Part shown: positions 16,160-63,847 of the stretch, piece after piece | Layout of the letters: the number at the start of each line of letters is the position of its first letter | Position numbering within the stretch: position 1 is the stretch's first letter | Position numbers and translations under genes: made by a program | The notes under the pieces: model-generated | What the model was told of the DNA's origin: nothing | Seen by the model: the letters and a program-made list of their open reading frames with translations, nothing else | Databases searched by the model: none | From: an uncultured virus (IMG/VR IMGVR_UViG_3300024999_000047) | Lineage: Duplodnaviria; Heunggongvirae; Uroviricota; Caudoviricetes | Strand: one strand, 5' to 3' | Virus record (IMG/VR): IMGVR_UViG_3300024999_000047 | Length of the DNA stretch: 64,000 nucleotides

Positions 16160-17125
16160 ATGGCGATTTTTCCTTTCGATGATATTTTAACAACATTTAA
16201 AAATGGAACATCAAGAGCATTAAGAGTTGTTACTGAAAATCTAATAACAGGTGGATATTCCCCTGCTAATTTAACAATGCAAAATGCAGTAACAGCAAAT
16301 GGTAATGGTACAACATTAAATGTAAATGAATATGCAACAGCAGTATTAGAAATTAGAGGTACTTTTTCAGCAACTATTAATTTTGAATGTAGTATTGATG
16401 GTACAAATTGGTATCCTGTTTTAGCAACAAAAAATGATGGAATAATTAGTAGTAGTTGTTCTACGGCAGGGTTATATGAAATTAAGGTTGCTGCTTGGAA
16501 ATCTATACGTGCAAGAGTTAGTGGTTATGTGAGTGGCAATGTAACTGTTGTTGGGAAGGTTAGTCCGTTGGTTAATGCGGAAAAGAGTATGCAACTAACT
16601 GGTAGTTTACCTTCGGGAAATGAGCATGTTGGGCAGGTAGGGTATACGCTTAAAAAAGTGGCTACTAACTTTACTCGTCCGTCTGACACAACACCGTATA
16701 CCGTAGGCGACGCTATCACAAACAGCACATCTGCCCCAGTAGTGTTTCAATTGGATTTAGGTGCTTTGGGTGCGGTAGCAGGGCAAGCGGTAGAGGTAAG
16801 AAAAATAGCGGTAATATCTAGTGCAAAACAAGCAATTTTACCGCTTATGAATATCTATCTTTCAAATGTAACCTTTACAGCAACAAACGACAACTCTGCT
16901 CTCGATATTGCTGACGAAGTTATGCAAGCAGGGGGAGCATGGTTTAACACAGATATCCAAAATTACACAGCAAGTAATAGTCGTGTATCACAACAAAATA
17001 TTTCAATCCCCATGACTCTTGCTGATGCTGACACAAAACTATATGGCATACTTCAAGATACAATAGGTTATACCCCTGCCAGTGGCGAGGTATTTACTAT
17101 TGTTGCTTGGATTGCATTGTTGTAG
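16160..17125 (+). CDS. Two-domain virion accessory protein with a junction at MQLTGS
   Basis: Strong RBS; beta-rich N-domain (FECSIDGTNW); second domain begins after the shared site at 16588-16606. Confidence 0.6.
   Translation: MAIFPFDDILTTFKNGTSRALRVVTENLITGGYSPANLTMQNAVTANGNGTTLNVNEYATAVLEIRGTFSATINFECSIDGTNWYPVLATKNDGIISSSCSTAGLYEIKVAAWKSIRARVSGYVSGNVTVVGKVSPLVNAEKSMQLTGSLPSGNEHVGQVGYTLKKVATNFTRPSDTTPYTVGDAITNSTSAPVVFQLDLGALGAVAGQAVEVRKIAVISSAKQAILPLMNIYLSNVTFTATNDNSALDIADEVMQAGGAWFNTDIQNYTASNSRVSQQNISIPMTLADADTKLYGILQDTIGYTPASGEVFTIVAWIALL
16588..16606 (+). repeat. Cassette left site L1, identical to 52187-52205
   Basis: TATGCAACTAACTGGTAGT, 19/19 identical in two otherwise dissimilar genes and in the same reading frame. 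Confidence 0.85.
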
Positions 17126-17130
17126 GTGAT

Positions 17131-17862
17131 ATGATGTATCCATTTTTTAGTAAGAAAGGGCAAAGAGGTATTGTAAAACGTGGTTTGTTTGCTTATTATA
17201 ACGCATTGCGACAATACTCTACAAACCAAGTAGGTCAGAGACTAATTGATTTTTCTGGAAATAATTACCGAGGTCAATCTGGAAGTGTCCCTGTCTCTGA
17301 CCCAAATGACCCAATATTTACATCCCAGGGTTTAAGTTTTGATGGTGTTGATGATTATATTAATGTCGGTAATATAGGTAAGTTAATGCGTACTTGTCAG
17401 ATTGTTTTCTATACGCCGACAGAGATAAACAAAACAAGTAGTAGTAGTGCTTTGATTAGTATTGAGGGAAATGATAATGGTTATATTGCCATTGGTCTTA
17501 CTACATCCCTCATAGCAGATGAAATAATTACTATATTAGATATTAGTGGCGGTAGAAGTGGGTGGTGCAGTTCGTCAGGAAATATCCCGATAGGTTGGCA
17601 TTTATTGGAGGTTGTATGGTTAGATAGTAAATATCGTATAATTTTGGATGGTATAGAAAAACCGATAACTACAGCAAATGCGCCAAGAGTTTTAAATGCT
17701 ACAAATTTAAGACTAGGCAGCGTTCCATCGGGAGGTTCTTATTTTAATGGCAAACAAGCAGAAATACTTCTGTATGAACGCACACTAACAAACTCTGAAT
17801 TAGCACAAAACAGAGCATTTATCAAAGCAGAATGTAAAAATTATGGCATTACAATTAATTAA
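17131..17862 (+). CDS. LamG/concanavalin-A-like lectin domain protein
   Basis: LSFDGVDDYI...GWHLLEVVW...IILDG...YFNGKQAEILLYERTLT. Confidence 0.75.
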   Translation: MMYPFFSKKGQRGIVKRGLFAYYNALRQYSTNQVGQRLIDFSGNNYRGQSGSVPVSDPNDPIFTSQGLSFDGVDDYINVGNIGKLMRTCQIVFYTPTEINKTSSSSALISIEGNDNGYIAIGLTTSLIADEIITILDISGGRSGWCSSSGNIPIGWHLLEVVWLDSKYRIILDGIEKPITTANAPRVLNATNLRLGSVPSGGSYFNGKQAEILLYERTLTNSELAQNRAFIKAECKNYGITIN

Positions 17863-17878
17863 AAGGGGGGCTTTAAAA

Positions 17879-18133
17879 ATGGTGGTTTTATTTCAAAGTA
17901 AAAATGATGCAGATAACACTTGCAAGCAAATTGAAATTCTGCCTAGCGGAATTTATGTTTGGTATTCTGAGGATGGAATAAATAATATGATACAGTATGC
18001 ACAAAGCGTAGATGGTCGCTGTGCCATGTCTGCTAATTTTACTTCTGAGGATATTGCTGTTTGGGGTGCTTACCCTGCCGTTACGCTTATGACTGGTTTA
18101 CCTGCTGATTGGCAATATCCCACATTAGGTTAA
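17879..18133 (+). CDS. Small hypothetical protein, last gene of cassette 1
   Basis: GGGGG RBS then ATG at 17879; stop codon abuts site R1. Confidence 0.6.
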   Translation: MVVLFQSKNDADNTCKQIEILPSGIYVWYSEDGINNMIQYAQSVDGRCAMSANFTSEDIAVWGAYPAVTLMTGLPADWQYPTLG

Positions 18134-18157
18134 CCAACTAACTAAAATGCGTTAGTT
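18134..18157 (+). repeat. Cassette right site R1 (palindromic)
   Basis: CC-AACTAAC-taaaatgc-GTTAGTT: 7-bp arms with an 8-bp spacer; matches 53877-53900. Confidence 0.8.
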
Positions 18158-18373
18158 ATATAACTCAATAATCTATAATCTATAATTAAATAATATAAAA
18201 ACACTATTTATACATATCAAATATTAAATATAATTAACACAATTAATTAAATATAATTATATTCACACTAATATCTAAAACACAATAAGGATTACTTCAT
18301 ACTAATGCATAATAAAAATGCATCAACATGGATTAATCCTTATTTTTTTAGTTTTATTGTTATAAAACTGAGA

Positions 18374-18442
18374 TTTTGTCATGATTTTGGGATTTTTAAA
18401 GTGTTGATTTATAGGGGTTTAGTGGATGTGTGATTTTTGATA
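18374..18442 (+). repeat. 69-bp dispersed repeat, copy 1
   Basis: Ungapped 55/69 match (manual count) to 54049-54117; core AAAGTGTTGATTTATARGGGTTTAG. Confidence 0.8.
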
Positions 18443-18506
18443 AATTTGTGATTTTCATGGAATGTAAGATTAGAATAAGTAAATATAATTTTAAGGAGAT
18501 GTTAGT

Positions 18507-19088: not shown

Positions 19089-19112
19089 TTATTAAGATAG
19101 TAAATATAATTG

Positions 19113-19206
19113 TCAGAGGATAGTGATTGCAACATGACAAGTAGTTTTCCTAGACTACTTCCTCTGATTTATTTTTTATTTAGGAAAAGAAAATATACTA
19201 TAGGAG
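19113..19206 (+). promoter_or_regulatory. Putative structured RNA leader, copy 2
   Basis: P1 TCAGAGGA/TCCTCTGA; P3 AAGTAGT-tttcctag-ACTACTT; loop is complementary to TAGGAAA (19181) and TAGGA of the RBS (19201). Confidence 0.65.
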
Positions 19207-21229: not shown

Positions 21230-21361
21230 ACTAGATGCTTAATGGAGTAATTACCCATTAAAAAAGAGAGTTGTCCTTTCTCTCTGCATCTAGTTTTTAT
21301 ATTTTATAAAACAAAATAAAAAAGGATGAATGTTAGTGATTTAAAATAAAATGAAAAGGAC
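21230..21361 (+). promoter_or_regulatory. Putative structured RNA leader, copy 3
   Basis: P1 ACTAGATGC/GCATCTAGT; P2 TTAATGG-agtaattac-CCATTAA; P3 AGAGAG-ttgtccttt-CTCTCT; loop pairs with AAAGGAT (21321) and AAAGGAC (21355). Confidence 0.65.
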
Positions 21362-21371
21362 GTGGTATGAA

Positions 21372-47867: not shown

Positions 47868-49841
47868 ACGTCAAATAAAACCAATCAAACAAAAAGATAT
47901 TTCATAGAATTTTATGATTCTTCAGATAAGGAATTAGTAAAGTCATTTGGTGGAATAGTTAAACATGATTTTAATAACGTTTCAGAATTAATGTCAGCAG
48001 AATTAACTTTAGAACAAGTAGAAAAATTAATTAAACACAATAAAATAAAAAATATTAAACTTGTAGGAATGTGTAAGGGTTCTTCTCAATATATGGATTG
48101 GGGTTATACTGAAACTAAAGTAAATACGAGATATAGAGGAATTTATACAGGAAATAATGTAAAAGTTGCAATAATTGATAGTGGTATAGAACATCATGAA
48201 GACTTAATTGATCCTTATGAATGGATAGATTATGTAAATAATGTTTTCTTCAGGTATGATGATTATGGGCATGGTACTTTTATTGCAGGTATAATTTCAG
48301 GACAAGATAATACTGTTGGTTATATTGGAGTTGCACCAAACGTAACATTATATGTCGCAAAAGTATTAGATGAAAATAATTTTGGTTATGTAGATGATTT
48401 TATAGCAGGGATAGACTGGGCAATATCACATGATGTTGATATTATAAACTTTTCTATAGTATCTGAAATATATGATCAATATTTAGTAAACGCAACTCGT
48501 AGAGCGTATGATGCTGGAATTATTGTAGTGGCATGTAGTGGTAATGGAACATGGAATAGTCAAACTGGATGGGATATGATTGCAAAAAATACTTTGTCTT
48601 GTCCGGCAATAGATTATTCTTGTGTTTCAGTTGGTTCAATTGATTTTTATGAAGAAAGATCAAGTTTCTCCAATTATGGTGATGGATTAGATTTGGTTGC
48701 ACCTGGAGAATATATTAGTAGTACATATAATAGTAGTTACACAAGTTATGCAGGATGGTCAGGAACATCTTTTGCTACCGCTTATGTAACTGGTCACTTA
48801 GCGATATTAAAAGAAAAATATCCTTCATATTCTCGTTCACAATTAGTTAGTAAACTATTAAGCAATTGTAAGTCATTAGGTGATTCATATCAATATGGTG
48901 CAGGATTAGTAATGGCTGAATTGGCATTGCCAAGTACACCTTCTTCTCCCCCTACTATTACATCAAGAATAGAAGGTGGCTTTAATTTATCTTGGGGAAC
49001 ATCAACATATGCTACATCTTATACATTAAGATATAAAAATTATGATGGGATTTATCATACTATTCCTGTATCTGGTACAACATATACATTAACAGGTTTG
49101 CAATATGGTGTTACACATTTCTTATCTGTTAAAGGAGATAATGCTTCTGGTAGTTCAGAATATACTCCTATTAACGATTTAGATAATCCAGGTACAACTA
49201 CTGCAAAATCACCAGGAAATTTAACAAATCCAGCAAAAACATATAATACAATTGATGTTAGAATTGCAGATGGAATGAGTGGTAATTGGGATTATATAAG
49301 AGTTTATGCTTACAATAATGGTATATCTCCATCTTATAAAGATATTAGTTATGCTAGTTATCAAAGTGGAACTAGGATTGTTACATGGACAAATCTATCT
49401 GCTGGATTGCAATATAGATTCAATGCAAGAACATATTATACATATAATACTGTAGCATTAGATAGTGTGTATTGGAGTAATGATTTATATGTTACAACAA
49501 CTAGTAGACCAAGTTTATTTAATTGGACACAGACAGAATTAGATGCATTCAATAATAATGGAAATATAAATACATTAACATATTTAAGATGGAATGAATT
49601 TGTTGATAATATAAATTTAGTGAGAGTATATAAAGGATATTCACCTATTGTTAATGATAGTGCTGGAAGAACAGTAAAAATGACAAGTAGTGATAAGATA
49701 CTATATGCCACAAGATTTAATGCTATTAGATTAGCAATTGGTGAAATTAATTCAACTGGAATTACAAATAAAGTTTCAGGTGATACAGTATATGGGAATT
49801 ATTTTGTGACGTTGTGTAATAAGTTGAATGAGATTAGTTAA
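47868..49841 (+). CDS. S8 subtilisin-like protease with I9-like propeptide and FN3 domains
   Basis: Catalytic triad IIDSG / HGTFIAG / GTSFAT; FN3-like motifs follow. The frame is open back to ACG at 47868 after GAGGTG. Confidence 0.88.
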   Translation, partial: TSNKTNQTKRYFIEFYDSSDKELVKSFGGIVKHDFNNVSELMSAELTLEQVEKLIKHNKIKNIKLVGMCKGSSQYMDWGYTETKVNTRYRGIYTGNNVKVAIIDSGIEHHEDLIDPYEWIDYVNNVFFRYDDYGHGTFIAGIISGQDNTVGYIGVAPNVTLYVAKVLDENNFGYVDDFIAGIDWAISHDVDIINFSIVSEIYDQYLVNATRRAYDAGIIVVACSGNGTWNSQTGWDMIAKNTLSCPAIDYSCVSVGSIDFYEERSSFSNYGDGLDLVAPGEYISSTYNSSYTSYAGWSGTSFATAYVTGHLAILKEKYPSYSRSQLVSKLLSNCKSLGDSYQYGAGLVMAELALPSTPSSPPTITSRIEGGFNLSWGTSTYATSYTLRYKNYDGIYHTIPVSGTTYTLTGLQYGVTHFLSVKGDNASGSSEYTPINDLDNPGTTTAKSPGNLTNPAKTYNTIDVRIADGMSGNWDYIRVYAYNNGISPSYKDISYASYQSGTRIVTWTNLSAGLQYRFNARTYYTYNTVALDSVYWSNDLYVTTTSRPSLFNWTQTELDAFNNNGNINTLTYLRWNEFVDNINLVRVYKGYSPIVNDSAGRTVKMTSSDKILYATRFNAIRLAIGEINSTGITNKVSGDTVYGNYFVTLCNKLNEIS

Positions 49842-50365: not shown

Positions 50366-51301
50366 ATTTCAATTTTTGATTATCAAACTGCCGTAATTTC
50401 AAGACGTAGAAAAGGTGATGTATCTGATCCTTATATAGATATATCAGAATCACAACAAATAATTCAAAATAAAGCCGTAATTTCTGAAATTCCAGATAGT
50501 TTTACAAAAGTAACTGTATCAGGATTAGGTGTTACTTGGATTGAAACTACTAGCGTGCCTAGTGAAAATCAATATAGAGTAAGTTATGATTACGGATATG
50601 TTGAATTTCATTCAAATAGGAATAATGAATCCTTAACATTCTCTTATAAAGGAACTGGTGGGTACTATTTAAATGTAAAAAGAATTTTTGTTTTAGTGGA
50701 TTCTAATGGTGATGTAATTGAAACACTTCAATCTATCACAGATTCTACAATAATAGCAAGAGATGATGCGATACAAACAAATACAGATATTCAGGAAGAA
50801 GAATCAATTAGAGTTTCAAATGAAAATACTAGACAATCTCAAGAATCAGATAGACAAACAAATACTACAAACGCAATAAATAATTTAAATGATGCAGTTG
50901 ATACTAGTCAATTAATTTATAAGAGTCCTGTAGCAACATTTAATGACATTATTACTACTTACCCCACACCAGAATTAAGTTGGGTAGTACAAACATTAGA
51001 TGATTCTAAATATTATAGATATGATGAAAATTCAGAATGGATTTATATTCAACAAATACAATTATCACAGATTGATACAAAAGTATCAAAATTAGGCGAT
51101 ACAATGAGTGATTACCTAACTTTACATGCAGATCCAACCAATCCATACCATGCTTCAACTAAACAATATACAGATACTAAATTGCCATTGTCTGGGGGTG
51201 ATATGACAGGAAATATAAATATGGGAGAAAATGAAATTAATTTAGGTGGATTTAAAATTAAGCATAATGCAAATTTAAATAGTATTGATTTTGAATTTTA
51301 A
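50366..51301 (+). CDS. Tail fiber/baseplate-associated protein
   Basis: AGGAGGTG plus an in-frame ATT start extending ORF 50555; YRVSYDYGYVEFH and HASTKQYTD...LPLSGGDMTG fiber motifs. Confidence 0.65.
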   Translation: MSIFDYQTAVISRRRKGDVSDPYIDISESQQIIQNKAVISEIPDSFTKVTVSGLGVTWIETTSVPSENQYRVSYDYGYVEFHSNRNNESLTFSYKGTGGYYLNVKRIFVLVDSNGDVIETLQSITDSTIIARDDAIQTNTDIQEEESIRVSNENTRQSQESDRQTNTTNAINNLNDAVDTSQLIYKSPVATFNDIITTYPTPELSWVVQTLDDSKYYRYDENSEWIYIQQIQLSQIDTKVSKLGDTMSDYLTLHADPTNPYHASTKQYTDTKLPLSGGDMTGNINMGENEINLGGFKIKHNANLNSIDFEF

Positions 51302-51314
51302 AGGAGATGATAAT

Positions 51315-51602
51315 ATGGGTGTTCGTGTAGGATCTGGTTATCTTGGAAGTTCAGATATCCAAATAAGTGTAGCAGAGCAAGAAATTTTACCTAGTCCACC
51401 TAGTAATTGGTTAGGTAAATATAATTTTTATAAATTTAGTTTTATGAATTTAAATAATGCATGTCATGTTTCTATCAATAATGGAGATTGGATTTATTTA
51501 GCAAGTTTTATAGGGATAAATACAGATTATGTAGATTTACCTATATTTTCCTTTAGAATACAAGAAAATAATATTTCTTACTATTGGATTGGATGTTATT
51601 AA
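51315..51602 (+). CDS. Small beta-rich virion-associated protein
   Basis: AAGGAG RBS then ATG at 51315. Confidence 0.55.
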   Translation: MGVRVGSGYLGSSDIQISVAEQEILPSPPSNWLGKYNFYKFSFMNLNNACHVSINNGDWIYLASFIGINTDYVDLPIFSFRIQENNISYYWIGCY

Positions 51603-51619
51603 AAAGGAGGTGAAATATT

Positions 51620-51916
51620 TTGTCTTTATTTAATAATAATTTTTTATTACAACAAAAATTAACAGATATAGATACGGCAATTGCTAATACTAATACATCT
51701 ATACAAAATGCTAATAATGCAACTACCACAGCTAATACAGCAACTATTAATGCTAATACAGCAACTATTAATGCTAATACAGCAACACAAAATGCAAATA
51801 ATAAAGTTAATCAGTTAGATAATTTTGATTATGAAACTATGACTATGGGTAATTATAGATTAAAAAATAATATAGAAACAGATGCATTAGATATTGAGTA
51901 TTTAGGTGGTAGTTAG
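51620..51916 (+). CDS. Short coiled-coil fiber-like protein
   Basis: ANTATIN heptads from a 21-bp tandem repeat at 51731-51786. Confidence 0.6.
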   Translation: MSLFNNNFLLQQKLTDIDTAIANTNTSIQNANNATTTANTATINANTATINANTATQNANNKVNQLDNFDYETMTMGNYRLKNNIETDALDIEYLGGS

Positions 51917-52049
51917 TAGATTAAAATATTAATATAAATATATTAATATAAAAGGAAGTTTTTATTATGATTTATAAAATATAATAATTTGTTTTTAAGG
52001 GAGTATTAATACTACTCTCTTTTATTTATTTTAAAAAGGAGGTTTTTAT

Positions 52050-52382
52050 ATGGCTTTAAATCCTATTTCCGATCTACTCCAAGGGATTAAGAGATTATAT
52101 GTTGGATTACAAGGTGTTAAATCTGATGGAGTAACAATGGAAACAATTAAAACTAATGATGCAGGTGCTATGAAAGTTGATGGCACTATGCAACTAACTG
52201 GTAGTATAGTTGTAATAGGTGGCGTAACCTTTGCAGTATCAGGTGGTGATACATTACGTAATACTGTTGCCAATAAACCAGATGCGGCTACTACACATGC
52301 TGTTATACCATTTTGTTATTATTTTAGTGTTGATACTGGAGTTGTTGAGGTTACAGATGGCGTTAATTGGGTGGTGATATAG
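52050..52382 (+). CDS. Virion accessory protein with a junction at MQLTGS
   Basis: AAGGAGG RBS; contains site L2. Confidence 0.65.
   Translation: MALNPISDLLQGIKRLYVGLQGVKSDGVTMETIKTNDAGAMKVDGTMQLTGSIVVIGGVTFAVSGGDTLRNTVANKPDAATTHAVIPFCYYFSVDTGVVEVTDGVNWVVI
52187..52205 (+). repeat. Cassette left site L2
   Basis: TATGCAACTAACTGGTAGT, identical to 16588-16606. Confidence 0.85.
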
Positions 52383-52383
52383 C

Positions 52384-53871
52384 ATGGATTTAGTCACTCT
52401 AAAATCTGCTAAGAATTATACAAACACAAAAACACTACCTCTTTTTTCTGATGTAACAATCACAAATAAATTATCAAATTCAAATTTTGCTAGTGCTACA
52501 AACTGGTCATTTGTATTGTCGAATGGTAGTGTGTCTAATAATGAAGCAATATTTACAGCCACAGCACTGTATGGACAATTAAGACAAGGTGTTGCTGAAA
52601 ATGTTGTGGTAGGTAAAAAATACTACTTTAGGGCAAAAGTAAAATCATCTTCTAGTAATGTTAATTTAAGTATGGCATGGACGTCTGATGGCAGCATAAT
52701 CACAGAAGTAGCACATAGCGGAAATGGGCAGTATGCCATTCTCGAAGGTACTTTTATTGCTACAGCAAGTGCAGCGATACAATTTAAAATTATTGATTAT
52801 AATTCAGCTAATTTTGCAGAAATTAGAGTTGCAGAAGTAATGTTAACGAGTCTAACTGTAGAGTATGGAGCCGGCTATGAATCTTCTGTATCTGACTATA
52901 AATCTGTTATCCAATTGTATAATAATCAATCCTTGTTTGTCCAAACAACTCTTGCAGTAAAAGCAGTTATCACAAGGAGTACACTACCTTTATTTGTTAA
53001 TATTACTAATAACATATTAAATGTAATTGCAAAGTATAATGCTACACAAGATTTAAGATTTGTTCTAAATAAAAAAGGCCCAAATTCTATTTTTGATTTT
53101 GGAAGTATTTACAAGGTAACTAATAATGCAAATTCAGTATCAAATAACATATCAGCAGGTACTTCTTTTTGGTCAAATGGAACAGACTCGTTCGGACCAT
53201 TTACCGTAGCAGCGGTAAGTAATGCTGATGGCGACAATCCTGGCACTTCTGCATTTACTGGTGGCAATCACGGTTATAATGGTGATGCAACAGGCAGTGC
53301 AACAGGAAGAACATCTTCAATCAGCTTTTTTGTGGACGGAAGAAAAGTTACTTCATTTTCTGGATTTGCTTCTTTCGTTGAAATTGAATGGATTAACTAT
53401 ATTCAGGCATATAACACCAAAAAGGCATCTGGTGGTGGGCGTGAGGTTATAAAAAAAACCTATCGAATGTCATTTGATGGGTTAAATTGGGAAGTTAGAA
53501 ATATTATCGAGTTTTTAGAAGCATGTAATGTAGAAACTTATTATGGTTTGCAATTAAGTTGTACTTCTTGGAATGGATATTTGTTATTCCATTCTGCTAC
53601 CAACAAACAATGGAATGCAGGAAATGTTAACTGTAACTCAGGAAGTAAGACCTGTAATCTTGTCACACATAAACTTAATACTGATTTTGCAGATTTAGGA
53701 CTAGATATTTCTTTTGGACTAGCTAATTCCGTAAACCTTCATACAGCAGCTTACAATGCTTTTAGGACAAATTATGATAAGTCGTATTTTAACCTAATCG
53801 ACTACCAGAGTGGTTTTTCTGCTGGTGATGTTTTGAGTTTAAGAGGATATTACAAGTTTTATAGTGCATAG
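52384..53871 (+). CDS. CBM-like domain protein, candidate receptor-binding or adhesion protein
   Basis: NKLSNSNF...W...LRQ...GKKYYFRAKVK galactose-binding-like pattern; beta-rich. Confidence 0.6.
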   Translation: MDLVTLKSAKNYTNTKTLPLFSDVTITNKLSNSNFASATNWSFVLSNGSVSNNEAIFTATALYGQLRQGVAENVVVGKKYYFRAKVKSSSSNVNLSMAWTSDGSIITEVAHSGNGQYAILEGTFIATASAAIQFKIIDYNSANFAEIRVAEVMLTSLTVEYGAGYESSVSDYKSVIQLYNNQSLFVQTTLAVKAVITRSTLPLFVNITNNILNVIAKYNATQDLRFVLNKKGPNSIFDFGSIYKVTNNANSVSNNISAGTSFWSNGTDSFGPFTVAAVSNADGDNPGTSAFTGGNHGYNGDATGSATGRTSSISFFVDGRKVTSFSGFASFVEIEWINYIQAYNTKKASGGGREVIKKTYRMSFDGLNWEVRNIIEFLEACNVETYYGLQLSCTSWNGYLLFHSATNKQWNAGNVNCNSGSKTCNLVTHKLNTDFADLGLDISFGLANSVNLHTAAYNAFRTNYDKSYFNLIDYQSGFSAGDVLSLRGYYKFYSA

Positions 53872-53876
53872 TTTAC

Positions 53877-53900
53877 CCAACTAACTGGGGTGCGTTAGTA
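53877..53900 (+). repeat. Cassette right site R2
   Basis: CC-AACTAAC-tggggtgc-GTTAGTA, 5 nt after the stop codon. Confidence 0.8.
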
Positions 53901-54048
53901 CGGTAACTTACAATTGAATATTGATTTAATAATACATAACAAAACTTAATATTGTATTTTCTAAATTAAACAAAAATAAAAATAGTAGTTACTTAATAAA
54001 AAGTAACTACTATTTTTTAACTTAAAATAACTTAAAATAAAATAAACC

Positions 54049-54117
54049 TTTTATCATGATTTCTAATTTTAGAAAGTGTTGATTTATAAGGGTTTAGGGC
54101 ATGTGAGGATTTTGATA
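54049..54117 (+). repeat. 69-bp dispersed repeat, copy 2
   Basis: 55/69 identical to 18374-18442. Confidence 0.8.
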
Positions 54118-54346
54118 TTTTTTGATTTTTAGTTTTTGGTATTTAGTTTTTAGTTAATTATTTTTTTATCTATGTATATGAAGAGAGAAGAAATACTCCC
54201 TTCTTCTCTCTTATTTGTTTTATCAATAATGTTGGTGATTATTGATAATTATTTGAATTATATCATTAAGGGAGGTTTATGTCAATATGGAATGTGAAAA
54301 TAATTGTAATGGAGTTGATAAATTTTTAGAAGGAGATGTTGAGAAT

Positions 54347-54709
54347 ATGGCGATTGATTTAGATACTGTGGATGTGATTTTAGATCAGCATGGAAAACAA
54401 TTAGATAAATTTGATACAAGAATAAGGGTGCTTGAAATTGAATTTGCCAAGAATAACGAAACATTAAATAATGTTAAACAAGGTCAGGAATCTCTAAAAA
54501 AAAGTATGGACAAGATTGAGGGGCAAATGTTAACCAACCATAATGCCATGTTATCAGGATTAAATTCACTAATAATAAATAAGAATGACAATTCTACTAA
54601 AGTTGAGGTGGCTAAGATAGATGGTAAAAGTAAGATATACATACAAATAATTCTATTTTTTGGAGGTTTGGCAACTATTGGTGGAAGTATTTATATGGCA
54701 ATGAAATAA
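54347..54709 (+). CDS. XhlA-like/holin-associated protein (coiled coil plus C-terminal TM)
   Basis: AAGGAG RBS; coiled coil followed by a TM helix; upstream of the amidase. Confidence 0.65.
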   Translation: MAIDLDTVDVILDQHGKQLDKFDTRIRVLEIEFAKNNETLNNVKQGQESLKKSMDKIEGQMLTNHNAMLSGLNSLIINKNDNSTKVEVAKIDGKSKIYIQIILFFGGLATIGGSIYMAMK

Positions 54710-54745
54710 AATTGTTTAATTAAATTATTAATATAATAAAGGAGT

Positions 54746-55555
54746 GTGAATAATAATATGTTAACAATAAACTTACTCCCTGGTCATGGAATTAGTAATA
54801 TTAAAGGAATACCCTATGATCCTGGAGCAACGAACAAAAATGGTACTCAAGAAGCAACTGGAACAAAAATATTAGCAAATAAATTAAAATCTAAATTAGA
54901 ATTTAATGGTTTTAAGGTTAATCTATTAAATGATAGAGATGTAAATACACAAATTAACTTTGTAAATAATAATAAATGTGATTTAGCAGTAGCATTACAT
55001 TTTAATGCTTTCAATGAAAAAACATCTGGTACGGAAGTGTTGTATTCAGATATAGCACCAGGATACCATTCATCTACTACATTAAAGTTTGCAAATATAT
55101 TATTAAAACATTTAGTAAACGATACAGGATTAATAAATAGAGGAATCAAGAAAGTAAATTCTGGAGTGGGCATAATAAAAAGGACTAATTTTCCAACTGT
55201 TTTAAGTGAGAATGCATTTGTTGACAATCCTATTGAGTATGTATGGGCAAAAGATGATGATAAACTAGAGATATTATCTATCGCACACTGCAAGGCTATC
55301 TGTGAGTATTTTGGGATTAAATATAAAGATAGTAAAGAAAAAGTAGAAAAAATAATTAACAACAAGGAGGAATTAATTGATATGGCAATTGAAAAATGGA
55401 TGAAAGACGCAGGAATTAATTCATTAAATAGTTTAGTTAAAAACGGGATTATTAATGATGGCAATTTATGGAGTAATAAAATGGATGAAAAAACTGAAAA
55501 TTGGCTGTTATTTACTATGATGGCAAGATTGTTAGAAAAAATAAATAATAAGTAA
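54746..55555 (+). CDS. Endolysin, N-acetylmuramoyl-L-alanine amidase (Amidase_3)
   Basis: LLPGHG...DPGA...E...ALHFNA...GTEV...PTVLSENAFVDN. Confidence 0.92.
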   Translation: MNNNMLTINLLPGHGISNIKGIPYDPGATNKNGTQEATGTKILANKLKSKLEFNGFKVNLLNDRDVNTQINFVNNNKCDLAVALHFNAFNEKTSGTEVLYSDIAPGYHSSTTLKFANILLKHLVNDTGLINRGIKKVNSGVGIIKRTNFPTVLSENAFVDNPIEYVWAKDDDKLEILSIAHCKAICEYFGIKYKDSKEKVEKIINNKEELIDMAIEKWMKDAGINSLNSLVKNGIINDGNLWSNKMDEKTENWLLFTMMARLLEKINNK

Positions 55556-55599
55556 GATAAAATTAATAAATAATTAAATTTTAAGGAGTGTATTCTATT

Positions 55600-55956
55600 A
55601 TGGAACAATTTATAACAATTCAAAATCTATCTACTATCGGAGGATTAATTTTAGTAGTAATTTTAATTGTACAAAATTTTAAAGAAATTGTAGATAACAT
55701 CTATAAAAAAGCGTTTGGAAAAACATTGTCTACAAAATACCTAGTTTTCATGATTTCTGAGTTTTTATTATTTACTTCTAAACATTTCTTAGGAGAAAAT
55801 ATATTCAATGGTGAAGCAATATTTATAAATTTTATAAATGGAGTAATTTTGGCGAGTGTAGCAATGAAAAGTGTCGAAACATTGATGAATAAAAATAGTA
55901 ATAATGTTAATAATAATGTTAAATCCAATGGTAATATTAGTGGAGAAGTAAAATAA
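55600..55956 (+). CDS. Putative holin
   Basis: Multiple hydrophobic segments; follows the endolysin. Confidence 0.7.
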   Translation: MEQFITIQNLSTIGGLILVVILIVQNFKEIVDNIYKKAFGKTLSTKYLVFMISEFLLFTSKHFLGENIFNGEAIFINFINGVILASVAMKSVETLMNKNSNNVNNNVKSNGNISGEVK

Positions 55957-56266
55957 CCTCCTCCCTCTTTACACAATGCTTCCTCTCGCTCCTTCCCCCA
56001 CTTTCATAATGTGATTTTATTTGGTAATTATTTGGAAAGATAGAGGAGTTAAATTTGACTAGGAGAATAATAATTTAATACAAAGGAGAATTTTTATTTT
56101 AAAATATAAAAATAAATTAAAAGAAATAATTTCTAATATTTTTATACCTAAATTATCAAAGTTTAATAATTAAATTATAGATATAAAAAAATATCTAAAT
56201 AAATTTGTTGTTTGGTGTTAATTTTTACATATTGATAGTAAAATTTAATAAAAACACCTTAAATCC

Positions 56267-56733: not shown

Positions 56734-58674
56734 ATGAAAATTAAATGTATTATTGATACTAAAGAATTTTTATCAAAACCACAAGGTAAAAGTGGTGGAG
56801 GAATAACTTTAAGAATGACACTTAATACAGCAAAAGAATATTCTATTGATGAAATTAAAGAGAGTATTCTAATTGGCAAAACAGTTAGACCTTCATATTG
56901 TGGAGGCAGAGAAGAAACATGGAAATCTCAACAAATGTTTATGATAGATATTGATAATAATTTGACAATTAATCAAGCAATAGATAAATGTAAGGAAGTA
57001 AATATAATTCCTAATTTTATTTATACTTCATTTTCTCATACAGAAGAACATCATAAATTTAGATTAGTATTTATTTTAGACAAAGAAGTTGATGAATATG
57101 ATACTGCTAAAAAGATACAACTATATTTAATGAATATTATGGAATATTCAGATGAACAATGTAAAAATATCAATAGATTTTATTACGCAGGTAAAAATAT
57201 TGTATTTAATAGTGGGAATGTATTAAATAGAGATAATATTATAGAATTGTCTAAGGTTATTAATTTAGATAATGTATCTTCAAAGGTCAATAAAAGTAAG
57301 AAAGATTCAGAAAGGGTGGATAATATATTAAATGGTATTGAATATAATTATAATTCACTTAATATTATGTCCACCCTTTCTTCGGAAACTCCCACTCCTT
57401 CAATTAGTAAAGAAAATTATAATATAAAAGCAATATCAAATAGAGATGTAAAATATTTGAAGGATAAAATAAATAATATTCCTATTGAATTTGATAATGA
57501 TGCAGAATTTTGGCACTATATTTATCGTATTAATATGATTGAATTGTTAGAATTAAAACATCCTAAATCTTTTAAATGTTTATTTCATAATGATCATAAT
57601 CCTTCTGCTAGTGTTTTTCAAAATGATGATGGAGTTTGGCTTTATAAATGTCATAGCAAATGTAAAATGCCAAATGGTAAATCATTAACATTAAATAATA
57701 AACAATTAATTGAAAAATTAGGTAATTATAAAAGTGAATATAAAGCAATAAAATTTATAAAAGATATTTATAATTTATCTATAAAAGAAACAGAATGGAG
57801 TATTGAGCAAAAAGCAAATTTAGATGGTATTATTTATAAATTAGATATGAATATATTTTCTGAATTATGTCCTCAAACAAATAAAAATATAAGATATGTA
57901 AAAGAATTATTTTCTGTAATGGTTCACACTGCTAAAGATAATGTATATGGTGAAAATTATACTAATTCAGATGGTGATATTATTTTCTTTGTTTCATTAA
58001 CTGATTTAGCAAAGCAAATGAATGTATCTTTAAATCATCTTAATAGAATTAGTCAAAGACTATCTGTATTAATTTATCATGATCTTGTTCGTAAATTAGA
58101 CGATGACAAAATTCCAGAATTAATGCTTAAAAAAGCACAAGCAATTTCTATTGATAATAAATTTCCTAAAAGAGTTAATTTTTATGCAATACCTTCATGG
58201 ATATTAGAACATTTAAGTAATGTAGAATTACAAGGTGTAAAATGGAAAAGTAATGGTTATACAATTAAAGGTGCATCTTATGAAATGTTTTATAGAGGCG
58301 AAGGATTAGAAGTTGCTCAGAATATATATCCTCAACATAAAAAAGTTAAAGGCAAAGAAATTAATAATGAAACTGGTGAAATTTTAGAAGTAATTAAAGA
58401 TAGAACAACTAGTAAGATAAGTAATGAAAGAGTTGATAATATTGTTAAATCAATTAATATCTTAATTAATAGAAAAAGATATACAACAGAAAAAGAATTA
58501 ATATTATATTTGTCTAATGAATATTTATGGGAAATAACTGAGATTCAATTAAGAAAAATGAGAGGGCAATTAGATAAATTAGGTTATAAAAGAATAAGAG
58601 CGAATAAAGAAATAAAAGAACAATATAATATTAATAGTTTAGGTTATCCTTTGATTATTGTTGTAAAAGATTAA
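56734..58674 (+). CDS. AEP-like primase/Rep protein with CHC2-type zinc finger, paralog 2
   Basis: FMIDIDN...YTSFSH...KFRLVF; CLFHNDHNPSA...YKCHSKC. Confidence 0.65.
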   Translation: MKIKCIIDTKEFLSKPQGKSGGGITLRMTLNTAKEYSIDEIKESILIGKTVRPSYCGGREETWKSQQMFMIDIDNNLTINQAIDKCKEVNIIPNFIYTSFSHTEEHHKFRLVFILDKEVDEYDTAKKIQLYLMNIMEYSDEQCKNINRFYYAGKNIVFNSGNVLNRDNIIELSKVINLDNVSSKVNKSKKDSERVDNILNGIEYNYNSLNIMSTLSSETPTPSISKENYNIKAISNRDVKYLKDKINNIPIEFDNDAEFWHYIYRINMIELLELKHPKSFKCLFHNDHNPSASVFQNDDGVWLYKCHSKCKMPNGKSLTLNNKQLIEKLGNYKSEYKAIKFIKDIYNLSIKETEWSIEQKANLDGIIYKLDMNIFSELCPQTNKNIRYVKELFSVMVHTAKDNVYGENYTNSDGDIIFFVSLTDLAKQMNVSLNHLNRISQRLSVLIYHDLVRKLDDDKIPELMLKKAQAISIDNKFPKRVNFYAIPSWILEHLSNVELQGVKWKSNGYTIKGASYEMFYRGEGLEVAQNIYPQHKKVKGKEINNETGEILEVIKDRTTSKISNERVDNIVKSINILINRKRYTTEKELILYLSNEYLWEITEIQLRKMRGQLDKLGYKRIRANKEIKEQYNINSLGYPLIIVVKD

Positions 58675-58752: not shown

Positions 58753-59907
58753 TTAACTTTTAATCTTTTCATCTGGAACAATATAACCAACAACATGTTT
58801 AGTAACTGCACGAACTGTACTACTACTGTTGATGACCATTGGGATACCGTTTTTAATTCTAAAACATTCTGACCACCAAGGATTATCCTTAGAGAAAATA
58901 TACCCTTTAAATCCATCAACTTGTACTGGTTCTTTTAATTTTGCTAATTTCTCCTGCCAATTTTCTAATCCATATAATTTTCTAGCAATTGTAAAATACG
59001 CATTAAATGTTATTTGTTGTATAGTTAAATCTTTATTTCTCATTTCTTGACGATTTGTGATATTGCCCATGTACTCAGATAAGAGATTCACTAATTCATC
59101 CCAAAATAAAATTAAATATTCTGCAATCTTATCTGCTTCATTTCTAGTTAATAATAAATTACTAAAATTGTTTTTAACACCATCATAAATAACCGCAAAG
59201 GTGGTAATATCATTATTTGTTTTTGCTCTTATTGAACCAGAACCAATTTTAATTTTACCATTTAATTCTGATTCATTTATTAATTTTCTTGCTACAGTAT
59301 TTGATAAATCATAAACATCTAAAAAGTTAACAATATTTTTCCCAATTTTTGTTTGCTTTCCGTTGTATTCATTGAAAAGAGCTGAAGAATCTATATCATT
59401 TAGCACATCTACACTAACTATCATTTCATATTGGAAAGGATTTACAATTAAATGTTTATCTTTTTCTTTAAGTTTTTCCCACCTATTAAGTAAAAATAAA
59501 CCACTAGTTAAGCGATGGCAGCCGTCGATCAATTCCATTTTATTTTTACAACTAAGAATTCCTGAAATTTCATCAAAATGTAGAATAGGATTTTCTTCTT
59601 TTCTAATGTTTAAAGTAATTAAATTTCCAAAAAATTTATTAGACAAGATACACGTAGTAATTTCCTTAATTTTAGATTTAATAATAAATGGTTCTGTGCT
59701 TCCGTCCTTATTTTTACGAATTCCCCTCTGTTTTAAAGGATTATAGTAAATTTGACCATCACGATACATAGAACTTAAAGTACCAAGTGAAACATTTCCT
59801 GTGTATCTAACTATTTCACCATTTTTATATAACGGACGTAGAGGAAGTTCCCATTCTACAGTATCATCCACCAAATCCATACCAATCTCCTTCTCAACAA
59901 CACTCAT
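58753..59907 (-). CDS. DGQHR/DndB-like (ParB-superfamily) protein
   Basis: YNPLKQRG...ITLN...LIDGCHRL...LFNEYN. Confidence 0.7.
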   Translation of the reverse strand: MSVVEKEIGMDLVDDTVEWELPLRPLYKNGEIVRYTGNVSLGTLSSMYRDGQIYYNPLKQRGIRKNKDGSTEPFIIKSKIKEITTCILSNKFFGNLITLNIRKEENPILHFDEISGILSCKNKMELIDGCHRLTSGLFLLNRWEKLKEKDKHLIVNPFQYEMIVSVDVLNDIDSSALFNEYNGKQTKIGKNIVNFLDVYDLSNTVARKLINESELNGKIKIGSGSIRAKTNNDITTFAVIYDGVKNNFSNLLLTRNEADKIAEYLILFWDELVNLLSEYMGNITNRQEMRNKDLTIQQITFNAYFTIARKLYGLENWQEKLAKLKEPVQVDGFKGYIFSKDNPWWSECFRIKNGIPMVINSSSTVRAVTKHVVGYIVPDEKIKS

Positions 59908-60130
59908 TTTATAAATCACTCCTCTTATTCATTAAATCTAATTTAATAACATCATTAATTTAATCATCTTATTCTAATTATATCATTTTTGTTAATTTTT
60001 ATACATACTAAATCCATAATAAATATTATTTTTTTTAAATTTTTTTAGTTCTAAAAGGATATTCTACACTCTTTGTAGAATACTATATCTATCCCTATTC
60101 TCCATAACATCATTATAAGGAGTAAATATC

Positions 60131-61654
60131 ATGGAAAATAAATTATCAGAAATCATAAAGGATATAGCAATATATCTTCGTAAATCAAGAGCAAAAAATC
60201 AAGAAGAAGAAACTGATGAAACATTATATAAACACAAAGAAATTCTTGTTGATTTTGCTAAGAAACATGATTTTAGATATGTAATTTATCAAGAAGTAGT
60301 TTCAGGTGATAGTATTGATAATAGACCTGAAATGATTAGATTGCTTGATGACGTTGAGAATGAATTATATGATGGTGTTTTAGTAATTGATCTAGATCGT
60401 TTGGGACGTGGAGGAGAAGAAGATTCGGGGAAAATTAAACGTATTTTTAAAAAATCTGATACATTAATTATTACTCCTAATAAAATTTATAATTTAGAAA
60501 ATGAAGATGATGAAACATATATGGAGTTCCAGACGTTTTTAGCAAGGCAGGAGTATCGCTTAATAAAAAAAAGGTTAATTCGTGGTAAGAAAATTGGAAG
60601 TAAAATGGGCAATTTTACCAATGGTACAGCACCTATTCCATATAAATATAATCCTCAAACTAAAGGTTTAATTGTAGATGAAGAAAAATTACCTATATAT
60701 AACCTTATTAAATATTTATATCTTGATAAATTATTATCTGTAGATAATATTGCAAATGAATTAAATAAATTAGGTATCCCTACACTTTATGACAGAGGAA
60801 CTAAATGGCATGCAAATGTAATACAAAGAATACTTATTAGTGAGACTCATTTAGGTAAGATAATTAGCAATAAAACTAAAGGCAATAGTAAAAAAGGTGA
60901 AAAAATAATACAATATTCTAGAGATAAATGGATAGTGGTTGAAAATTGTCATTCTTGTGTAAAAACTCAAGAAGAGCATGATAGAATATTAGAATTGTTT
61001 AAACAGAGAAAACAAATTGCACCAAGAGCAAAACAGGGTGTATTTGATTTTTCAGGTTTGCTAAAATGTTCATTGTGTCAACATTCGATGACGTTTTTTG
61101 TCAGAAAAGAATCAGATAAAGTATATATGAAACCTTGTTGGTATGTTGACAATTTTGGTAATAAGTGTCCTAATCGTGCTGGAAGTGTTGAAGAAGTAAG
61201 TAAGTTTGTTAAATTGAAAATTATTGAAAGAAAAGAAAGATTATTTAAAGAACTTAAAAATGGAACAAGCCATGATAGTAGTAAAATAGAATTGATTATA
61301 AAACAAAAAAATAAGCAACTAGCAAAATTTAATAAAGCATTAAATAATGCTAAAGATGCTTATGATTTAGGTGATTATACTAGAGATGAATGGATAGAAA
61401 GAAAGAGTAAATGGGAAAATGAAATAGAAAAAGTTAATAGTGATATTAATGAGTTAAATGAACAAATGTTGAAAAACAGTGTAATAAAAAATAAAGAAGA
61501 AGATATATATATTATTACTAAAGTATTAGAAAATTTAGATAAAAAAGATATTTCTTCTAAAGAAAAAAATAGATATTATAAATCAATAATTAAAGAAATA
61601 TTATGGACAAGAATTGGTAATAACGAAGAAATTATAGATATAGAATGGAGATAA
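60131..61654 (+). CDS. Large serine recombinase/integrase (SprA-like)
   Basis: IYLRKSR...EVVSG...DLDRLGR; recombinase domain; zinc ribbon LLKCSLC; coiled coil. Confidence 0.93.
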   Translation: MENKLSEIIKDIAIYLRKSRAKNQEEETDETLYKHKEILVDFAKKHDFRYVIYQEVVSGDSIDNRPEMIRLLDDVENELYDGVLVIDLDRLGRGGEEDSGKIKRIFKKSDTLIITPNKIYNLENEDDETYMEFQTFLARQEYRLIKKRLIRGKKIGSKMGNFTNGTAPIPYKYNPQTKGLIVDEEKLPIYNLIKYLYLDKLLSVDNIANELNKLGIPTLYDRGTKWHANVIQRILISETHLGKIISNKTKGNSKKGEKIIQYSRDKWIVVENCHSCVKTQEEHDRILELFKQRKQIAPRAKQGVFDFSGLLKCSLCQHSMTFFVRKESDKVYMKPCWYVDNFGNKCPNRAGSVEEVSKFVKLKIIERKERLFKELKNGTSHDSSKIELIIKQKNKQLAKFNKALNNAKDAYDLGDYTRDEWIERKSKWENEIEKVNSDINELNEQMLKNSVIKNKEEDIYIITKVLENLDKKDISSKEKNRYYKSIIKEILWTRIGNNEEIIDIEWR

Positions 61655-62410: not shown

Positions 62411-63847
62411 TTATGCACTTTTATTTTGTTGTTTTATGTATTTATCATAATCTTCTTTATACATCCATTTAAATCTTCCTGCTGAGTTCTTTTTACCTCT
62501 ACAGCAGTTATTAATATTTCTATCTCCTATATTTAATTGTCTTCCTGCTTCTGCTGCACTTTCAAATTCCGCTATGTATTTCCCTGTAAGTGATAACTGA
62601 ATTATAGGGATACTTCTTATTTTACTAACTTTTATACCATTATTTTTCATAATTTCTTTTCCATTATAATTACACCATTTTAATTTTGTACCTTGATTGA
62701 GATATTTTATAACTGTATTTTTAGCTATTTTTATAATATTGCTTATTTCTTTTATATCTTTAATTCCATCCATCCATAATATACTAACTTTTTCAACCAA
62801 ATTACTACAAGCATATTTTTCTATTTCATCCCACTCAATACTGTTTAAATCAAATAAATCAACTAATTTACTAGTTAAAATATTTTTCTTTATGTATTTT
62901 AAATTACTTTTCAAACAATCAATTCTTATCACTTCAATATTATGTTCTTTTGCTAATTTATCCTTATAATCATCTATTGCTTTAGAATCTTCTGCTGTTT
63001 GACCATTTAACGGATTATCATTCCCATGCCCTAAACTACCATCCATTTCTAATATGTATTGTTTATTATTAACTTCAAAATAAAAATCATATCTCCTTGG
63101 TTTAATCCAATCAGGGTTATATTCATATTCAAAATCAATATTTAACTGTTCTAATAAATTAAATGCAAATTTATTAGGATAACTAATTCCGTCTCCACAT
63201 TTAGGGCATGAAAAATTATGTTTTATAATAGAACGTATATCAAAAGATTTTTTATATTCACATTTAGGACAAATAAAAATGATTTTTTGGGACATTCCAT
63301 GACTTACTTTATAACCTATTTCTGTATTATCTAATAATTTAGCAATATGTGGATGAGTAGTCCATAAATCATTATAACCAATTAATATTTTCTTTGATGG
63401 AACACAACAAACATTACAACCTACATTTTTATTTAAATCATATTCATTTATTTAATCTTCATTTCCGCATTTTAAACATTTATATTTATATCCTTTTTGT
63501 GTATATTTCCCCTGGGGCATCCTAATTTGCTCTATTATTTGTATTTGACTAAAATTATTAGTAAAATTTTCTCCAATTTTATATTTAAAATTACGATTAA
63601 TCATATTTAATAATTCACCTAAAGCACATTTTAAAAAATTATCTGTATATATTCGATGACTTTTATTATTGTAATATATATAGATAGAAGGATGTTGATT
63701 TTCTTTAATATAATCAATAATTTCAACTTCTCCTTCAATATCATCATAAATAAATTTAACTTTATATCCAATGCTATTTTCCCAATCTATACGTTGTTTA
63801 TTTCCATATTTATTTTTTGGCAATTCATCTAAAAACACTTTTCTCAA
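62411..63847 (-). pseudogene. Zinc-ribbon/PD-(D/E)XK/NUMOD1 endonuclease-like gene split by one in-frame TAA
   Basis: The two track ORFs are in the same frame: KCLKCGNED*INEYDLNKNVGCNVCC...NDLWTTHPHIAK...MSQK; RYDFYF...ILEMDG; IIQLSLTGKYIAEFES. Confidence 0.8.

Follow-up and report, generated by a model that had tools for sequence, protein, structure and literature searches.

The 64,000-nt stretch of DNA analysed here, which we call the window, belongs to an uncultured virus of the class Caudoviricetes (IMG/VR record IMGVR_UViG_3300024999_000047) and carries two acceptor genes, gene 52050 (locus 2) and gene 16160 (locus 1). In both genes an 18-nt element, L, encodes a hinge at which N-terminal parts and C-terminal modules have been shuffled, and the C-terminal module together with the following gene or genes forms a cargo that ends at an inverted-repeat element, R. 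The reading that we favour, with a probability of about 0.6, is that the C-terminal domain and its partner gene(s) are swapped as a block by recombination in conserved flanks. The window itself (26.4% GC) reads as part of a large AT-rich tailed phage.

The elements of both loci are given for the plus strand. At locus 2, the 110-aa acceptor protein (52050..52382) consists of a 46-aa N-part (52050..52187; MALNPISDLLQGIK...), the hinge and the 58-aa C-module 2 (52206..52382; IVVIGGVTFAVSGGDTLRN...NWVVI). The hinge, MQLTGS, is encoded by L2 (52188..52205; ATGCAACTAACTGGTAGT) with the codons ATG CAA CTA ACT GGT AGT. Cargo 2 (52206-53871) opens with C-module 2 and continues with an open reading frame (ORF) of 495 aa (52384..53871; stop codon TAG at 53869-53871), in which the first ~16 residues (MDLVTLKSAKNYTNTK) are conserved and the body is variable. 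R2 (53878..53899; CAACTAACTGGGGTGCGTTAGT) contains the inverted repeat ACTAAC-N8-GTTAGT, and its left arm repeats the hinge codons CAA CTA ACT. It is followed by an AT-rich terminator-like hairpin with a 17-pair stem (53978..54017, identified in a terminator scan and assigned to neither strand) and by copy 2 of an intergenic repeat of ~86 nt (54031..54122; repeat family D3, nhmmer E = 1e-16). At locus 1, the 321-aa acceptor protein (16160..17125) contains a YomS/XepA-like N-domain, a linker with L1 (16589-16606) and C-module 1. Cargo 1 (16607..18133) comprises C-module 1, a Laminin_G_3 protein (17131-17862; Pfam PF13385 at 33 bits, cut-off 27.6) and a 96-aa ORF (17843-18133). R1 (18135..18156; CAACTAACTAAAATGCGTTAGT; RNA fold z = -2.66) directly follows the TAA stop codon, and copy 1 of the ~86-nt repeat lies at 18347..18447 (nhmmer E = 1.7e-20).

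L1 and L2 were identical over 18/18 nt within otherwise unrelated DNA; in an ungapped comparison of the two loci 15/15 positions matched in the L block and only 1-8/15 in each neighbouring block. The first-pass annotation of this DNA had located L2 in gene 52050 and its version of R2 (CCAACTAACT) 5 nt after the TAG at 53869-53871, and both elements are present at these places. The 11-nt match that it noted between L2 and R2 (CAACTAACTGG) was borne out, as three matches with at most one mismatch occurred in the window (16592, 52191, 53878) against 0.61 expected, a number reached in 1 of 100 shuffles. It had also argued from the two-locus layout against chance; the pattern AACTAAY-N4-12-GCGTTAGT matched the window at exactly two places, R1 and R2, and was absent from 100 shuffles. 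The order after each R was the same at both loci: an AT-rich spacer, a terminator-like hairpin and the ~86-nt repeat. That repeat had been described as a 69-bp component of the layout; it is indeed found at both loci (18362-18447 and 54037-54122, 76% identity, the only two copies that nhmmer detected in the window), but its length is ~86 nt and it is not bound to the cassettes. A further copy in a related record lay away from any cassette, so the repeat looks like a dispersed intergenic element rather than a cassette part, and it may be a promoter or operator region. Full or partial copies were also seen in relatives (L060, G002 5783-5862; L005, 73-133; L053, 552-599), some of them just upstream of long fibre genes.

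The GC content at third codon positions (GC3) was 0.17-0.31 in cargo and 0.10-0.13 in the backbone. In cargo 1 it was 0.31 for C-module 1 and 0.23 and 0.27 for the two genes that follow, compared to 0.126 in the N-module. The cargo had been annotated as GC-richer at locus 2 as well. A sharp step at L was present in cassette 1 only (0.126 to 0.312); at L2 the N-part had a GC3 of 0.174, close to the 0.169 and 0.212 of its cargo, with backbone genes at 0.10-0.12. Taken together with the occurrence of C-module 2 in metagenome contigs of 39-53% GC, these values point to a foreign origin of the cargo.

An AlphaFold (AF2) model of the 321-aa protein, built from a 67-row alignment, had a mean predicted local distance difference test (pLDDT) score of 89.4. 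It contained confident beta-sandwiches at residues 35-135 and 163-321 joined by a weak linker at 136-162 (pLDDT 57-62). The MQLTGS sequence (residues 144-149) falls inside this low-confidence segment between the two sandwiches, and we therefore take L to encode an inter-domain hinge in the model. The N-domain superposed on the C-domain of XepA (6i56_C) with a VIA-align Z of 18.8 and a root-mean-square deviation of 1.7 Å over 106 aligned residues, and on YomS (6i5o_A) with a Z of 17.9; the next entry scored 8.3. Foldseek also matched the domain to YomS (E = 1e-6). The predicted N-domain of gene 16160 thus has the XepA/YomS fold. The Pfam copy searched gave no match for this protein at E <= 1; the XepA/YomS family (PF27453) is annotated on its distant homologues P0228, P0229 and P0231 and on 11% of one ESM Atlas cluster. 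Gene 52050 has no N-terminal sandwich domain.

XepA and YomS are encoded by the Bacillus subtilis prophages PBSX and SPbeta, respectively. According to PMC6834076, XepA is a dumbbell of two sandwiches with a 30-residue connector, and YomS corresponds to one such domain alone. The sandwich at residues ~23-136 of gene 16160 superposes on these domains, and gene 16160, though not gene 52050, has the arrangement of two domains and a ~30-residue linker; YomS as a stand-alone domain fits modularity. Unlike in XepA, the YomS-like domain is N-terminal here and is followed by a variable second domain. The sequences are 17-21% identical, and XepA is not known to have an exchangeable C-module or partner genes.

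With the 321-aa protein as query, a full HMMER search returned 3362 homologues (E <= 0.001). When the best 150 of these were re-aligned by blastp, 82 gave a high-scoring segment pair in the N-module and 47 gave one in the C-module. Among the closest matches, N-module alignments stopped at residues 149-160 and C-module alignments began at residues 141-164. The locus-1 N-module, in copies 77-82% identical, was followed by at least nine unrelated C-modules after the sequence M/I-Q-L-T/S-G/D-S, and the genes downstream of these modules were unrelated as well. Eight close N-module homologues and the more distant P0206 retained residues 1-149 and then each continued with a different C-terminal sequence; the hinge was M/I/V-Q-L-T/S-G/D-S in these homologues and T-L-T-G-S in P0206. 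The same transition was seen in DNA. Compared to L041 and L043, locus 1 was identical at 20-30 of 30 positions per block (67-100%) through L, and identity fell to background, 5-11 of 30, within 30 nt.

The reciprocal pattern was obtained with the 110-aa protein, for which 77 homologues were found. Of 76 matches other than the window's own protein, 33 were picked and aligned with the query. C-module 2 (QL[ST]GS-xVEIGGVSFAVSGGDTLRN...NWVVI) stood behind unrelated N-termini in 29 of them, and the remaining four (P0072, P0074, P0076, P0077) carried the locus-2 N-part, with identity up to 87%, in front of other C-modules. At the DNA level, 28 metagenome loci, one of which is the window's own sequence, and two further viral contigs encoded C-module 2. 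Copies of the module were 70-86% identical and occurred behind at least 24 different N-parts or junction contexts. We also considered whether the hinge carries a special codon signal, as the junction leucine was CTA in 17 of 21 cases compared to 17 of 294 elsewhere in the same ORFs. This candidate was rejected because codon conservation extends across the whole of the first ~16 codons of C-module 2. Within the hinge the G and S/T positions vary at their wobbles, and CTA and AGT are kept. As the same N-part is found with unrelated C-parts, the same C-part is found with unrelated N-parts, and the breakpoint is single, we conclude that modules are shuffled at L. The hinge itself appears from these alignments to be a natural recombination joint.

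What moves with the C-module extends into the next gene. Wherever a contig continued, C-module 2 was followed directly by a gene starting MD(A/L)V(S/T)LKLAKNYTNEK, and the remainder of this partner gene was only 18-22% identical between loci, indicating that the conserved unit is the C-module plus the first ~16 codons of the partner gene. Partner genes in L011, L014, L016, L018, L025 and L031, like window positions 52384-52431, have the common first ~16 residues MDAVSLKLAKNYTNEK and then diverge. The start of the partner gene is probably a second, nested junction one gene further on. In L016 the gene after the partner protein (3912-5312) begins ...NAVALTGSLENYVTGSLP, with another LTGS hinge near its start, so a block in a donor phage can have hinge-coding repeats on both sides. 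The conserved pair suggests that the C-module docks the N-terminus of the partner protein. A complex prediction with three copies each of C-module 2 (residues 40-110) and of the first 60 residues of the 495-aa protein had a score of 0.01 and was uninformative either way. The model of the 495-aa protein, from a 7-row alignment, had a pLDDT of 34.1 and was unusable; a PDB sequence search with the N-module profile and the 495-aa protein returned nothing meaningful. The relative L053 has a distantly related cargo made up of a fibre of 703 aa, a lectin-like protein of 576 aa and an ORF of 104 aa.

The right end of the cargo is marked by R. At five loci R lay 0-5 nt from the last stop codon or overlapped it. 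In records resembling the window the sites were as R1 and R2 and were placed as in the window. The R of L005 (CAACTAACTAAGGTGCGTTAGT) began 1 nt after the last stop codon, that of L041 (CAACTAATTAAGGTGCGTTAGT) contained the last stop codon, and that of L043 (TAACTAACCAACGAAAAGCGTTAGTT), which has a spacer 3 nt longer, was overlapped by it. A looser R pattern had exactly one match in four of five related records, all at cargo ends, and none with a reversed-pattern control; in the fifth record the contig ends within the gene. Of six exact matches in viral contigs, three (L002, L003, L007) fell within long ORFs of unrelated contigs and were counted as chance. When five right flanks were aligned, conservation was seen from R rightwards and not to the left of R, which identifies R as the first element of the conserved backbone flank. 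A hairpin equivalent to that at 53978..54017 was present after R1 and after the R sites of L005 and L041.

Within R the inner stem AACTAAC/GTTAGTT was conserved, and its one C-to-T change would still allow G-U pairing. Folding z-scores lay between -2.0 and -2.7 at four sites; at R2 the value was -0.46. No pair of the stem co-varied among the five right flanks, so the structure of R is without support beyond conservation. Additional pairing outside the inner stem, between the last cargo codons and the right flank (for example TTACC/GGTAA and GGTTA/TAACT), was observed at 53868-53912, at 18125-18170 and in L041 (2058-2103). Weak conservation (TTAACC-like) extends over ~7 nt to the left of R, and the stop codon often lies in this stretch. 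Read in the frame of the hinge, the R variants continue CTA-A(C/T)(T/C)... to LTKMR*, LTGVR*, LTKVR*, LIKVR* and LTNEKR*; all five end at the same TAG, as had been predicted for the two window loci. In L053 the left half of R is missing and the right half (GTTAGTTAA) makes up the end of the last ORF; no R-like site with up to three mismatches was found in 29 C-module 2 loci other than the window's own records. From the sites at cargo ends we conclude that R is the right boundary of the cargo in this phage lineage. In L043, R is followed (7048-12447) by a terminator, a small ORF on the minus strand, repeats of the motif ATAACTCATAT, the gene of an Xer-like tyrosine recombinase (7400-8242) and, beyond it, phage tail genes rich in GC; this region is either an element integrated beside R or a chimeric assembly.

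The first-pass annotation had proposed that both loci accept carbohydrate-binding cassettes from one pool, and overall this interpretation is partly supported. P0083, with a locus-1-type N-module, and P0074, with a locus-2-type N-part, have C-modules 55% identical over 146 aa (E = 4e-46) in an alignment that begins at the hinge. The same C-module type behind both N-part types supports a single shared pool, and the shuffling described above contradicts the opposite prediction of a cargo fixed to its N-terminal partner. Carbohydrate binding is indicated for some of the cargos only. Besides the Laminin_G_3 protein of cassette 1, the cargo of L005 contains a GH28 match (25.1 bits, cut-off 22.9); for the 495-aa protein, which had been called similar to a carbohydrate-binding module (CBM), a weak CBM_4_9-like lead over residues 24-160 was recovered and a firm label is not warranted. 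Tandem cassettes, which it had suggested counting, were not seen, each locus having one R in the six cargo ends with a full R. The empty site MQLTGVR* was read correctly from the letters, but no such form was found in the records. Short homologues of residues 1-160 gave five matches (77-137 aa, coverage 48-64%), none ending after the hinge, and a hinge motif within 30-40 nt of a right-flank motif was absent from the viral contigs and from the five related records.

Evidence that cargos differ among members of one population came from sequencing runs. Four runs contained 83-91% of the sampled words of 51900-54200, and their Logan contigs were mapped on 51400-54700. In run X4 one contig covered exactly 52189-53931 at a depth of 11.7, and the summed depth was 109-130 upstream (51844-52176) and 97-300 from 53842 on. 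A loose end at 52177 marked another continuation, the ...KVSAELTGS form of P0072, P0074 and P0076, and three contigs with other upstream sequence joined at 52187. In X1 and X2 a relative ~10-fold more abundant covered 51940-52169. The contig graph branched at L and ~30 nt after the last variant-specific base (~53901), indicating that cargos are polymorphic in the population. Alternative cargos on a shared backbone would give such a pattern. One contig each in X1 and X2 joined 52208 to 53904 without cargo and R2, at depths of 56.1 and 9.3 compared to 69.6 and 8.84 for the cargo contig. In the window's letters this joint reads MQLTGSI followed by TAA, and its shorter side is 22 nt; relatives or repeats often give such joints. 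It also differs from the predicted joint at the core common to L and R, and we treat it as a lead rather than as evidence. Runs X5-X7 contained only 6% of the sampled words, with parts of the flanks at a depth of 2-8 in X5.

In the block-exchange reading, genes 52050 and 16160 would be paralogous modular genes for virion fibres or adaptors, each with an N-terminal part that stays with the backbone, a flexible hinge x-Q-L-T/S-G-S and a C-terminal domain. The C-terminal domain and the next gene(s), which are lectin-, CBM- or depolymerase-like and sometimes include a small ORF, would be replaced as a unit. The left edge would be the hinge, of which ~15-18 nt are common to almost any N-part and C-module, and a join there would leave both domains intact. 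The right edge would be R, opening the non-coding flank of AT-rich spacer, terminator hairpin and ~86-nt repeat that is common to both loci and to relatives. Exchange would most likely proceed by ordinary recombination between co-infecting or co-resident phages, with the hinge, backed by the N-module, as left homology arm and R plus its flank as right arm; selection would retain only in-frame hinge joins. The left arm of R, with hinge codons in frame and a fixed TAG, may be a relic of a former gene end or of a second hinge rather than a proven crossover site. We infer the recombination mechanism, the placement in the virion and the effect on adsorption.

Several observations weigh against this reading. 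No recombination event was seen directly in these data, and general recombination would have to work with as little as 15-18 nt, which is short. L1 and L2, identical at 18/18 positions in unrelated DNA, are more alike than the peptide would need. Homology arms require neither the hairpin nor a left arm of R that repeats hinge codons (CAACTAACT, 9-11 nt), and both are present in five independent R sites. There is no composition step at L2, where the N-part is already cargo-like. Because R is absent from C-module 2 contexts outside the lineage, the first right-hand join of a foreign block is unexplained, and L053 has only half of the site. Finally, the closest solved relative, XepA, is described as a lysis-cassette protein and not as a fibre (PMC6834076), which leaves the virion and adsorption role a putative one.

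This last point is the basis of a different view of function, whatever the mechanism of exchange, in which the acceptors are XepA-like lysis-associated or exported proteins and the modules tune lysis or a host-surface effect instead of host range. We consider it unlikely, though several features speak for it. The fold of the N-domain is that of XepA and YomS, both described as lytic-cassette proteins in the same source, with XepA cytotoxic and its mechanism not known. Locus 2 lies just upstream of a holin-like ORF (54287-54709), so labelled from its position and hydrophobic C-terminal tail and matching no holin family in the family scans, and of an Amidase_3 endolysin gene (54746-55555; Pfam PF01520, E = 2.4e-29; PHROG endolysin), both on the plus strand. 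In PBSX, xepA likewise lies upstream of the lysis genes. However, the cargo partners are lectin- or depolymerase-like (Laminin_G_3, GH28), relatives have the same modules fused to repetitive fibre proteins of 690-700 aa, locus 1 ends the head and virion-structural block, and the nearest ESM Atlas clusters are 87-100% viral.

The direct repeat of the core, the hairpin and the position of R on stop codons would be better accounted for by dedicated site-specific exchange. A phage recombinase would act on the core common to L and R (CAACTAAC...TAGT), excise the block as a circle and insert it into either acceptor in an integron- or Xer-like manner; the ...QLT-x-x-R-stop that R encodes in frame would be the natural end of an uncharged acceptor. 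The core forms direct repeats in L and R, and R has arms of 6-7 bp with a spacer of 8-11 nt, the geometry of a tyrosine-recombinase core site. Like attC, it sits on or beside the last stop of unrelated cargo genes, and its five variants share the in-frame TAG; the one variant with an extended spacer has exactly 3 nt more. Genes for a tyrosine recombinase (26367-27395) and a large serine recombinase (60131-61654) are present in the window, and the Xer-like gene of L043 starts ~330 nt after R. We nevertheless judge this mechanism quite improbable. The nearest window recombinase genes are ~8 kb after R1 and ~6 kb after R2, with none adjacent, and none of the proteins reached an NCBIfam cut-off for integron integrases or Xer (220-335 bits), the window tyrosine recombinase scoring 43 bits at best against 220. 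Each locus has one R without tandem cassettes, no L-R hybrid or empty form occurred in the records searched, L053 is without the left arm, and the stem pairs never co-vary. The central 4 nt of the spacer differ between R sites and from L; tyrosine recombinases are usually intolerant of differing spacer centres. If this mechanism did operate, it would be an integron-like one inside a structural gene, building fusion proteins at two acceptor genes.

Gene conversion driven by a homing endonuclease is very unlikely. A free-standing phage endonuclease would cut the hinge or R of a co-infecting relative, and repair templated by the genome of the cutting phage would copy the adjacent cargo. Homing enzymes typically use conserved coding targets with variable wobble positions, and the hinge is such a sequence. 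An endonuclease gene (14426-15391; DUF7487/PHROG 12131, E = 1.3e-31) lies ~770 nt upstream of acceptor gene 1; the other two homing-type/HNH genes of the window are at 24589-26367 (HNH_repeat x6) and 62411-63295 (PHROG 4538/9084). No such gene lies beside locus 2, the codon conservation of the hinge is not exceptional given that of the ~16 codons that open C-module 2, and R would be left unexplained.

Two primase-like paralogues (21351-23189 and 56734-58674; PHROG 25531, CHC2 zinc finger) are 32% identical and lie each ~3 kb 3' of a cassette locus, and repeat families D2, D3 and D13 have a spacing of 35.4-35.7 kb. The primases and the repeat spacing suggest an old segmental duplication that reaches beyond the cassettes. 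That this duplication left static paralogues, with an inherited layout and no exchange today, is most improbable, since cargos differ on near-identical backbones, where N-modules 77-82% identical are followed by unrelated C-modules and downstream genes, the cargo GC3 is foreign, and single runs contain more than one cargo and N-part, their contig graphs branching at L and R.

Block exchange resembles several known systems in part. Tailed phages have mosaic receptor-binding and adaptor proteins in which the N-terminal anchor is conserved and C-terminal modules are swapped at conserved linkers. The likeness is close: a constant virion-side part, a variable distal part, exchange across distant phages and a breakpoint at a domain boundary. 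Here, by contrast, a defined 15-18-nt hinge recurs across thousands of proteins, the block includes the downstream partner gene(s), the right edge carries an inverted repeat, and one genome has two acceptor loci. In the CdiA-CT/CdiI and Rhs systems, C-termini are swapped at VENN or PxxxxDPxGL motifs and orphan modules occur. These too have a short conserved peptide between a constant N-part and a variable C-part, with a downstream cognate gene, and junction vestiges can persist downstream, as the left arm of R may be. The genes here, however, are phage structural or lectin-like genes instead of toxin/immunity pairs, and no orphan modules were seen in our records.

Integron attC sites are ~57-141 nt long with paired R and L boxes and the cores RYYYAAC/GTTRRRY. 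As in integrons, a hairpin-forming site lies at the cassette's 3' end in five loci, next to the stop codon or overlapping it, AACTAAC...GTTAGTT is one mismatch per arm from those cores, and the cargo is compositionally foreign. The R core is instead 21-24 nt with one 6-7-bp stem and variable outer pairing; no IntI match was found among the window proteins; there are no arrays, with one R per locus or related record; and the cargo starts inside a coding sequence and includes up to three genes. Invertible fibre segments (Mu Gin, P1 Cin, p15B Min) and Rci shufflons have inverted sites, resident alternative segments and an adjacent invertase. They resemble the present loci in placing alternative C-terminal fibre parts and a partner gene on a constant N-part, but here the cores of L and R lie in direct orientation on the plus strand, each locus has one cargo, and no recombinase gene lies beside either locus. 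A diversity-generating retroelement has a reverse transcriptase and a template/variable repeat pair; of the 51 ORFs scanned against PHROGs none matched a reverse-transcriptase family, and a repeat search of the window detected no near-identical repeat pair at the cargo.

The remaining gene content of the window is that of a tailed phage. Family scans identified a portal gene, virion structural genes, a tape-measure gene of 2470 aa and Dit-like and Tal-like genes, as well as RusA and the lysis, primase-like, recombinase and endonuclease genes already mentioned. The tail module also includes a gene (47991-49841) for a subtilase (Peptidase_S8, E = 2e-46) that has an fn3-like domain. Downstream of the second primase-like gene, a gene for a DndB-like protein (58753-59919, minus strand) adjoins that of the large serine recombinase (plus strand). 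Rfam and tRNA scans of the window gave no matches. The nearest virus record (47.7 kb, CheckV completeness 27%) had 65% of the window's sampled words in common. Against cultured phages, blastn with 51000-56000 found no match, blastn with 15500-19200 found a single 168-nt RusA stretch (71-72%) in Clostridium phages c-st and D-1873, and tblastn with the two acceptor proteins gave weak Caulobacter-phage matches or none. A profile search of genome contigs with the locus-1 N-module gave one weak unrelated match, and single-protein scans of viral contigs recovered the window's own records only.

No description of this layout was found in the open-access literature searched. Mosaic fibres whose distal modules have been swapped are already known; within that literature, what is new is a defined hinge throughout a very large and unannotated family that has a YomS/XepA-fold anchor, as well as the block cargo, the marked right edge and the two acceptors in one genome. 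The join point x-Q-L-T/S-G-S lies in an inter-domain linker and is widely used, in a family of more than 3000 detectable members that is almost unannotated. For the orphan XepA/YomS fold this suggests a plausible role, that of the constant domain on the particle side of binding devices that can be exchanged. As the block has a marked right edge, occurs twice in one genome and is polymorphic in a population, the mechanism of module capture is directly testable, and the arrangement provides a template by which binding modules of laboratory phages might be swapped. For the phage itself, such exchange would allow it to change what it sticks to.

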